Below are positions 9,053 to 9,535 of a DNA stretch of 64,000 bases, piece after piece (within the stretch, counting starts at the first letter, position 1; each line of letters opens with the position of its first letter). Both the position numbers and the translations under genes were made by a program. The notes beneath the pieces were generated by a model, which was not told the origin of the DNA, did no database searches, and saw only the letters and a program-made list of their open reading frames with translations. The DNA comes from an uncultured Pseudomonadota bacterium (GTDB taxonomy: Bacteria; Pseudomonadota; Alphaproteobacteria; RF32; CAG-239), in contig CADAJN010000003.1 in NCBI GenBank assembly GCA_902788365.1, positions 58,656 to 122,655 of the forward strand, given 5' to 3'.

Positions 9053-9202
9053 ATGGCGGGTGACGGATTGAACCGGCAAGAAGCTGGTTCGCACTCAAGC
9101 GAAAGGCGGAATAACGCCGGTCGGCTTTAGCCGATGAGCGCAGAGCACGTAGCGCAGCGAAGTCTTCCCGCCATCATCCCGCCTGAAAAGGCGGTTTTTT
9201 TG
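9053..9202 (+). repeat. tRNA-Pro-linked structured unit 1 (sRNA-like) with its own terminator
   Basis: Conserved core AAGCTGGTTCGCACTCAAGCGAAAGGCG...GCCGGTCGG...GATGAGCGNAGAGCACGTAGCNNAGCGAAGT, then hairpin CCGCC-tgaaaa-GGCGG plus T7. Confidence 0.55.
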
Positions 9203-9378
9203 TTGGTCGGAGTGACAGGGTGAACCGGCGGAAAGCTGGTTCGCACTCAAGCGAAAGGCGCACGCGGGTGCGCCGGTCGGCAATTTGCCGATGAGCGTAG
9301 AGCACGTAGCAAAGCGAAGTAATCCCTAAACGTTGACCAACAAAAAAAATCCTGCCCTTGTGGCGGGATTTTTTTGTT
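9203..9378 (+). repeat. tRNA-Pro-linked structured unit 2 with its own terminator
   Basis: Same core as unit 1. Starts with an inverted copy of the tRNA-Pro 3' end (TGGTCGGAGTGAC). Terminator is TCCTGCC-cttgt-GGCGGGA plus T7. Confidence 0.55.
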
Positions 9379-9535
9379 AAAACGAAAGCGCGGGATTTGA
9401 AACAGCGAGAAGCTGGTTCGCACTCAAGCAAAAGCGAGACGGAAGTATCGCGGTCGCCGATAGGCGATGAGCGTAGAGCACGTAGCGCAGCGAAGTCTTC
9501 CCGTCCCTACGCCTAAAAAGGCGGGCTTATGTATT
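9379..9535 (+). repeat. tRNA-Pro-linked structured unit 3 with terminator-like hairpin
   Basis: Same conserved core, with compensatory substitutions in two internal stems. Hairpin CGCC-taaaaa-GGCG. Confidence 0.5.

Follow-up and report, generated by a model that had tools for sequence, protein, structure and literature searches.

A tandem array of TLR-like units downstream of tRNA-Pro in an uncultured alphaproteobacterium, probably a distant subfamily of the E. coli TLR/RtT class

We analysed a 64,000-nt stretch of contig CADAJN010000003.1 (assembly GCA_902788365.1; hereafter the window, meaning this whole stretch) from an uncultured Pseudomonadota bacterium of the GTDB lineage Alphaproteobacteria, RF32, CAG-239. 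In this window the tRNA-Pro(CGG) gene was followed by three tandem non-coding units of about 125-140 nt each, and their layout was that of the tRNA-linked repeats (TLRs) of E. coli. By this layout the array was filed under the TLR class, where the sequence comparisons given below indicate a distant and probably homologous subfamily that lies outside the current Rfam model. The array was no new kind of RNA, and the feature that a first-pass annotation had reported here from the sequence alone was real. Two features went beyond that annotation, namely a direct but decayed tRNA-end copy in each unit and equivalent arrays downstream of three other tRNA genes of the window. TLRs are a class known in E. 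coli since 1978 (Egan and Landy 1978 and Rudd 1999, as cited in PMC8144298). [quoted passage not shown]

The tRNA-Pro(CGG) gene was located at 8936-9012 on the + strand by both ARAGORN and Rfam, and its CCA end was encoded. The Rfam tRNA model gave it 59.4 bits. Its T stem (GCUGG/CCCGU, 8984-9002) carried one U-C mismatch, which was not a sequencing error because the identical tRNA was present in three related loci (L002, L075 and L084). The last ~28 nt of this gene were the source of the unit flanks. Each unit was assembled in the same order. These ~28 nt came first as an inverted copy, then the T-stem 5' strand (GCTGGTTCG) in direct orientation up to GGTTCG, a core of ~75 nt and, again in direct orientation, what remained of the tRNA 3' end. 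Namely, the shared core sat where the T-loop would continue, and the T-stem 3' strand and the acceptor 3' strand came after it. The core itself consisted of the linker CACTCAAGCGAAAG, a variable hairpin (P3), a second hairpin (P4) and a tandem-GA hairpin (GAGC...GCGA). Two core sequences quoted by the first-pass annotation were found three times each in the 64 kb of the window, always on the + strand and only at 9053-9535: GCTGGTTCGCACTCAAGC at 9083, 9235 and 9412 (chance expectation 0.04) and GATGAGCGYAGAGCACGTAGC at 9133, 9290 and 9466 (chance expectation 0.00). A repeat search also returned direct-repeat families of 64-67 nt with a spacing of 152-177 nt. Tandem Repeats Finder did not report the array since its copies were too divergent and contained indels.

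Unit 1 started 41 nt past tRNA-Pro on the same + strand. The sequence between them held the tRNA terminator hairpin CCCGCC-TATAT-GGCGGG with a T-rich tail (9020-9052, + strand, read from the sequence). This hairpin was the centre of a palindrome that connected the inverted copy of unit 1 to the tRNA 3' end, with arms of 32 nt (8998-9029 and 9035-9066) that were 81% complementary in the repeat search of the window. The best-preserved inverted copy was that of unit 2 (TTGGTCGGAGTGACAGG, 9203-9219), which was 94% complementary over 17 nt to the tRNA end at 8997-9013, and unit 3 had a decayed one (CGGGATTTGAAACAGC). Thus, the inverted and partly decayed tRNA 3' end that had been noticed at the unit starts was borne out. 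Moreover, the 3' end of tRNA-Pro recurred in direct orientation and decayed form at the end of every Pro unit, with identities of 7/8 in unit 1, 12/19 in unit 2 and 11/13 in unit 3. The copy of unit 2 read AATCCC...GACCAA (9321-9340), where the unit 3' end AATCCCTAAACGTTGACCA aligned to the tRNA-Pro 3' end AATCCCGTCACTCCGACCA, and that of unit 3 was TTCCCGTCCCTACGCC (9498-9513).

A multibranched fold was predicted for each Pro unit, in which P1 closed both ends, P2 paired TGAACCGGC with GCTGGTTCG, and P3 and P4 lay inside. Unit 1 (9053-9174, + strand) was delimited by this fold and by a match of 87.2 bits at 9058-9140 to R1, a covariance model that we built from 15 units; R1 spanned P2, the linker, P3, P4 and TGAGCG and contained no E. 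coli sequence. The helices of unit 1 were P1 (9053-9060 with 9167-9174), P2 (9069-9077 with 9083-9091), P3 (9105-9108 with 9115-9118), P4 (9120-9125 with 9130-9135) and the tandem-GA helix (UGAGC at 9135-9139 with GCGAA at 9157-9161), and the linker occupied 9092-9105. Both strands of its P1 had diverged from the tRNA via indels and still formed a perfect 8-bp helix. Unit 2 (9203-9341, + strand) matched R1 with 91 bits at 9210-9297, and unit 3 (9380-9513, + strand) with 86.9 bits at 9387-9473. The fold z-scores of the three units were -3.8, -4.2 and -1.8, and the minimum free energy of unit 1 was -66.4 kcal/mol. A terminator of its own, proposed for every unit, was present in units 1 and 2 as a hairpin with a T-run. 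Namely, the terminator scan found CCGCC-TGAAAA-GGCGG followed by TTTTTTT after unit 1 (9179-9201, + strand; hairpin 9179-9194), and unit 2 was followed by a two-way terminator-like hairpin (A-run, TCCTGCC-CTTGT-GGCGGGA, T-run; 9342-9376) that was seen in the sequence and as an inverted repeat, with the hairpin at 9349-9369 and then TTTTTTT read from the sequence. The terminal hairpin of unit 3 (CGCC-TAAAAA-GGCG, 9510-9523, within 9510-9540 on the + strand) had a poor, weakly T-rich tail and was not flagged by the terminator scan, so the proposal was weak there.

Further copies lay near other tRNA genes of the window. Four of its five tRNA genes carried a TLR-like layout, with three units after tRNA-Pro, one after tRNA-Val, one after tRNA-Arg(TCT) and two after tRNA-Thr, and the flanks of these units were each specific to their own upstream tRNA. 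The unit after tRNA-Val(TAC) (gene at 5186-5261, - strand) was located at 5003-5148 on the - strand and matched R1 with 67 bits at 5059-5146. It combined flanks from tRNA-Val with the common core (GTTCGGAATCAAGCGAAAGG, P3, P4 with a tandem G-A, and ATGAGCG). An A/T-rich hairpin insertion, ACGAAGTTTTTTTAGTAAAAAAACGAAGG, was present in this unit at 5012-5045 (- strand) ahead of the decayed tRNA-end copy. In three related loci (L075, L079 and L089) the Val unit stopped straight after ACGAAGTTTTTTT and had neither the tRNA-end copy nor the second terminator; this shortening was a deletion polymorphism between strains.

The unit after tRNA-Arg(TCT) (gene at 30220-30296) was located at 30340-30480 on the + strand and had a divergent core (nhmmer E = 5.5e-13). 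It ended in an exact copy of the tRNA 3' end (17/17 nt), and a copy of the tRNA terminator came next. This unit also contained an internal tandem duplication of 28 nt at 30352-30407 (+ strand; AAAGAACGACCGACAGGCGTTCGGAGCT, twice) that doubled the P2-like hairpin region, and its relative in locus L071 had a single copy of the 28-nt segment. The two units after tRNA-Thr(CGT) (gene at 57149-57224, - strand) occupied 56833-57106 on the - strand and likewise had a divergent core (nhmmer E about 1e-11). Their terminal copies of the tRNA 3' end matched at 17/17 positions in the first unit and at 17/18 in the second, each followed by a terminator copy, and the Thr fold had a z-score of -3.05 with a closing helix. 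The tRNA-Gly(CCC) gene (17050-17123, - strand) was alone among the five in having no TLR-like unit; it was followed by a plain terminator and, beyond that, by coding sequence. The tRNA-Gly(CCC) gene of locus L075 was likewise without a unit.

Outside the window, we scanned a genome collection with a 20-mer and metagenomes with the core pattern GTTCGSAMTCRAGCGAAAGG. The first scan yielded one relative, L002, in a metagenome-assembled genome from roe-deer rumen labelled Alphaproteobacteria, where the same tRNA-Pro was followed by two units. The second yielded 17 loci, 6 of which were chance matches. All 11 true loci lay directly downstream of a tRNA gene, namely of Ser(CGA), Val, Pro, Arg(ACG) or Glu(CTC), and their units had tRNA-specific flanks around the common core. 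The Ser and Glu units of related contigs also ended in a copy of the tRNA 3' end. Relatives of a 461-aa protein encoded next to the Pro array led to L071, with an array after tRNA-Arg(TCT), and to L074, with a partial unit of the Pro type. Among close relatives the number of Pro units was 3 (window), 2 (L002) or 1 (L075), and hairpins were shuffled between the units of different strains. With blastn, the array gave only 22-nt chance matches, on plasmids, among 5,426 E. coli genomes, and a 15-mer scan of viral contigs returned 65 loci, all by chance, with no R1 match in 564 kb.

These loci bore directly on two readings in which the units would be scars of other events. Copies of a tRNA 3' end downstream of the gene are also found at integration sites, and the first-pass annotation had offered a degenerate array of integrase att sites (attL/attR scars from integrations at the tRNA-Pro 3' end) as its alternative. 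However, the best-preserved copies were inverted ones, the units were non-coding elements of 125-140 nt with no coding capacity between the copies, and one core recurred at at least eight tRNA genes. Moreover, there was no integrase domain in the scanned neighbours of the array (6893-8838 and 9620-12916), in which LTXXQ, YmdB, NUDIX, GNAT and a hexapeptide-repeat (LpxA-like) transferase were found. Since the core was common across tRNA identities and the scanned neighbours encoded no integrase, the att reading was contradicted, and we regarded it as very improbable. Decay of tRNA-Pro pseudogenes after tandem gene duplication would account for the fragments of T arm and acceptor stem. Yet ARAGORN and the Rfam tRNA model found nothing in the units, and the core, which was without a D arm or an anticodon arm, was the same after unrelated tRNAs; the pseudogene origin was contradicted by this shared core and was hardly credible. 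Near-identical cores stood behind the Pro and Ser genes despite wholly tRNA-specific flanks, and their junctions shared only 4-6 nt of T-loop sequence. This was not easily explained by ordinary homologous recombination and left room for targeted spreading, a mechanism that is possible but unproven for the cores.

The first-pass annotation had also described two hairpins that varied in sequence and kept their pairing, and both were present as written in all three Pro units. The P3 stems were GGCG/CGCC, GGCGCAC/GTGCGCC and GCGAGAC/GTATCGC in units 1-3, and the P4 stems were GTCGGC/GCCGAT, GTCGGCA/TGCCGAT and GTCGCC/GGCGAT. P3 and P4 were independent of the tRNA and occurred with many stem sequences: P3 was seen as GGCG, GGCGCAC, GGCACAC, GGCAGAC and GGCGGAC, and P4 as CGGC, CGCC, CGC and AAACC, with a tandem G-A in the Val unit. 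When mixed unit types were aligned with MAFFT, RNAalifold recovered hardly any structure, as P2 and P4 had been misaligned; therefore, the helices were set by hand and the units were realigned with a covariance model. In 16 distinct units from several loci, realigned with R1, standard pairs made up 88% of the pair cells versus 28-39% when the partners were slid by 1-3 columns, changes on both sides were seen at 10 of the 22 pairs, and the covariation score was 0.314 versus at most 0.087 for slid partners, all in an alignment that was fitted to the model, with related sequences and with P2 strands that were both tRNA copies. Accordingly, the proposed tRNA-linked structured RNA family was upheld at the sequence level. 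The argument from compensatory changes did not hold for the share contributed by P1 and P2, whose two strands were both copied from the upstream tRNA and were not independent.

The pairing was also asymmetric between the strands. G-U cells (36) exceeded A-C cells (8), so that 88% of the cells were paired in the sense and 80% in the antisense direction, and 26 of the 34 non-standard cells were G-A or A-G. Conservation was highest in the linker and in TGAGCG, with identities of 93% and 98%, versus 80% in the stems and 65% in the loops. The excess of G-U, the G-A cells and the conserved unpaired linkers spoke for an RNA of the tRNA strand rather than for a palindrome in the DNA. Thus, at the level of sequence statistics, a structured RNA on the tRNA strand was supported.

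The link to E. coli came from RtT, one of the 178-bp repeats in the tyrT-tyrV operon (Rfam RF00391, rttR), for which there is covariation support and a tandem-GA motif reported by CaCoFold. On our E. coli controls RF00391 gave 133-137 bits for the four tyrT copies and 46-60 bits for the tRNA-Lys spacers. Since it matched both, RF00391 described the TLR family attached to different tRNAs. Conversely, when R1 was applied to the E. coli tyrT locus, the four copies were its top four matches, in register and on the right strand, with 21.9, 13.3, 11.5 and 10.1 bits; their E-values were 1e-4 to 0.05 within the locus, and the best copy had 0.008 in 150 kb.

The anatomy of the two groups was also the same. 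In E. coli, TLR/RtT copies stand on the same strand directly after the tRNA gene in arrays of 1-5, as here, and in the tyrT copies a decayed inverted tRNA-Tyr end precedes AAGGTTCG in direct orientation, after which come a core and 19 nt of exact tRNA end. Folding gave the closing topology of P1 and P2 for the Pro, Ser, Glu and Thr units and for the E. coli Tyr copies. The order of motifs was common to the E. coli Tyr and Lys TLRs and the new units, namely GTTCG, a linker, a hairpin, a small hairpin, the tandem-GA hairpin and the tRNA end. The linker was (A)TTCGAGCGAAAG in E. coli and CACTCAAGCGAAAG here, with (A)TTC/CTCRAGCGAAAG as the motif. In both groups the tandem-GA hairpin had the form N-GA-GC[loop]GC-GA-N and led via a junction to ATCC and the remaining tRNA end. 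In the E. coli Lys TLRs as well as in the Pro, Ser and Glu units the tandem GA took the form GAGC...GCGA flanked by Watson-Crick pairs, and the E. coli Tyr form was CGAAG/CUGAG. The units here differed from the E. coli TLRs in their alphaproteobacterial host, an extra variable hairpin and a longer tandem-GA loop. Also unlike the E. coli TLRs, units 1 and 2 carried their own intrinsic terminators, which formed a long palindrome with the tRNA-end copies, and the direct copies of the Pro array were decayed rather than exact.

We considered it fairly probable that the explanation as a whole is the following: the units are TLRs built from the neighbouring tRNA, released from a read-through precursor by tRNA enzymes, with a copy number driven by recombination. 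Transcription from the tRNA-Pro promoter would read through the terminators and yield a precursor. The tRNA-derived ends of each unit would then pair to form P1, a closing helix resembling the acceptor and T arm with a tRNA-like 3' end, which could be recognised by the enzymes that process tRNA ends, namely RNase P on the 5' side and RNase E with 3' exonucleases at the copied 3' end. Such processing would produce a discrete structured RNA of about 120-140 nt. This scheme follows the descriptions of E. coli RtT and of RrB, whose 3' end is set by a repeated 5S end (PMC8144298). The invariant single-stranded motifs and the tandem-GA hairpin might form a functional surface, most likely a protein-binding site, and the RNA might act in trans. 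Unequal recombination between the modules of tRNA 3' end and terminator could account for changes in copy number (1-3 units).

A number of observations weighed against this explanation. The sequence scores were low across the two groups: RF00391 reached at best 15.2 bits on the window units (E about 1, unit 3 only) versus a gathering threshold of 45, which was all that an Rfam search returned for an RNA family resembling them, and it had no match at E <= 0.1 in 12 related loci. At the gathering threshold Rfam found only tRNAs in the window, and at permissive E-values the region 8850-9650 gave, besides this RtT alignment, noise that was mainly miRNA and leader models on the terminator palindrome. 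A sequence-only hidden Markov model made from the unit alignment (nhmmer) did not reach E. coli. R1 gave only 8.6-9.6 bits on the E. coli Lys TLRs, and its cross-match to E. coli was modest and rested in part on T-arm sequence that is common to all tRNAs. Intrinsic terminators separated unit 1 from tRNA-Pro and also followed units 1 and 2, and within the array a scan found no promoter-like site, so that transcription of the units would depend on read-through. Part of the apparent covariation, that of P1 and P2, was a consequence of copying both strands from the upstream tRNA. Moreover, covarying hairpins would be expected from a maintained DNA palindrome as well as from a structured RNA and do not by themselves tell the two apart. 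Finally, no function is established for TLRs except the rRNA-linked RrA/B/F, which bind Hfq and CsrA (PMC8144298).

The low scores and the alphaproteobacterial host would be expected if the units were a new family of small RNAs unrelated to the known classes and if the likeness to RtT were convergence, both having been built from tRNA 3' ends. However, the likeness extended to the parts that are not derived from tRNA, and in the same order (TCRAGCGAAAG, hairpin, hairpin, GAGC...GCGA). Moreover, R1 ranked all four E. coli copies first and the layout that defines TLRs was found here. Thus, we judged convergence to be improbable.

The terminators and the palindromes were better suited to another possibility, according to which the units are non-functional or selfish DNA repeats. 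Template switching would have lengthened the terminator palindrome into the tRNA 3' end, which would account for the inverted copy, and the units would have spread among tRNA loci and multiplied by unequal crossing-over and gene conversion, with hairpins maintained as palindromes of the DNA and no RNA product that matters. At Pro, a single palindrome with 32-nt arms was made up of the tRNA 3' end, the inverted copy and the terminator between them, and the arrangement was similar at Ser and Thr. The variation of copy number and the shuffling of hairpins between strains fitted such a process, the terminators upstream of every unit argued against strong expression, and the lack of an established function outside the rRNA-linked members was consistent with it as well. 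However, neutral or palindromic DNA predicts the reverse of the observed conservation, in which the linkers and TGAGCG exceeded the stems across different tRNAs. The preponderance of G-U over A-C and the G-A pairs pointed to RNA on one strand, and the motifs were shared with E. coli, a member of a different proteobacterial class. For these reasons we held the DNA-repeat origin to be rather unlikely and preferred TLRs that would be expressed as structured RNAs.

A broader version of the TLR reading was also considered, and we thought it quite unlikely to hold. According to it, the TLR/RtT-like units of different proteobacterial classes would be one ancient or horizontally spreading element, in which a conserved structured core of ~75 nt replaces the T-loop continuation within a duplicated 3' half of a tRNA and which colonises tRNA genes by targeted inverted and direct copying. 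The near-identical Pro and Ser cores with their tRNA-specific flanks would be compatible with it. Its RNA would then be a mimic of the acceptor and T arm with a conserved role in trans.

Other known systems shared some of these properties. [quoted passage not shown] Their 3' ends are defined by a repeat of the 3' end of the upstream stable RNA, which is the processing logic proposed here. In contrast to the units here, their linkage is to 5S rRNA, and their binding of Hfq and CsrA is via GGA, a motif that the new units did not conserve. A conserved CsrA-type GGA loop had been considered and was rejected, as GGA occurred in the P3 loop of only some units (Ser and Pro3). Two further candidates were dropped: an origin of GAGCACGTAGCGCAGCGAAGTC from the tRNA-Pro anticodon stem, because the identical segment follows tRNA-Ser, and a hammerhead-like reading of GATGAG...CGAA, which found no Rfam support. 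3'ETS-leuZ and other tRNA trailer fragments are released from the tRNA 3' external spacer by tRNA processing enzymes, as proposed here; unlike the units, they are short and unstructured sponges of small RNAs, are not tandem, do not mimic a tRNA end and have no common core. Integrase att sites likewise have the tRNA 3' end duplicated downstream, whereas the units had no integrase among their scanned neighbours and no island, included inverted copies and had a conserved structured core between the copies. REP/BIME and ERIC are also short non-coding hairpin repeats with strain-variable copy number, but they are dispersed, are not tied to tRNA genes and do not have flanks copied from a neighbouring gene.

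To our knowledge, TLRs have been described only in Enterobacterales. The class, taken by its layout, was not confined to them, as an uncultured gut alphaproteobacterium carried units behind most tRNA genes of the window. The single-stranded motifs and the tandem-GA hairpin of the core were constant while the stems and the tRNA flanks varied, which argues for a functional RNA rather than junk. No new type of system was revealed, and the value of the array lies in a second, very distant set of sequences that helps to define the invariant core, to extend RF00391 and to design experiments on processing and binding.

A divergent third unit was observed in locus L090 (about 3950-4075, - strand) after two ordinary tRNA-Glu units, which themselves followed the tRNA without an intervening terminator. 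The 3' core of the third unit (GGCCCGTAGGGTGAGGCGCAAGCCGAATAA) was almost the sequence of the E. coli Lys/Tyr TLRs (GGCCCGTAGGGCGAGCGAAGCGAGTC). RF00391 gave this unit no score. Judging from its sequence, it may be intermediate between the two subfamilies.

Just upstream of tRNA-Pro there were two tandem genes for LTXXQ-motif (Spy/CpxP-like) periplasmic paralogues (7730-8254 and 8326-8838, + strand), both slightly under the Pfam threshold, and the order of an LTXXQ gene and then tRNA-Pro was kept in L002. On the other side, an open reading frame of 461 aa (9620-11005, - strand) was convergent with the Pro array. It had ~10 homologues in 5.8 billion proteins, all on metagenome contigs, with relatives at 5001-6386 of L071 and 1337-2722 of L072. 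No Pfam, NCBIfam, PADLOC or PHROG match was found for its protein, so that its candidacy as an integrase or a defence gene was rejected. A 95%-identical copy was located in a different gene neighbourhood, where its 3' end abutted the TLR array of tRNA-Arg(TCT) and the similarity to the window ended at the stop codon. Possibly this gene travels from one TLR array to another as a single-gene cassette, or its two locations may reflect rearrangement through the arrays. Further along the window, rpoB was confirmed by NCBIfam at 22392-26591 (- strand), and the adjoining open reading frame of 1391 aa (region 18198-26591, - strand) was probably rpoC. In support of an alphaproteobacterial origin of the contig, and in line with the label of L002, the best PDB match of the window RpoB was 7YE1, the Caulobacter crescentus RNA polymerase, with 1945 bits versus 1679 bits for the E. 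coli enzyme, and the window RpoB was also clearly closer to 7YE1 than to the Pseudomonas enzyme.

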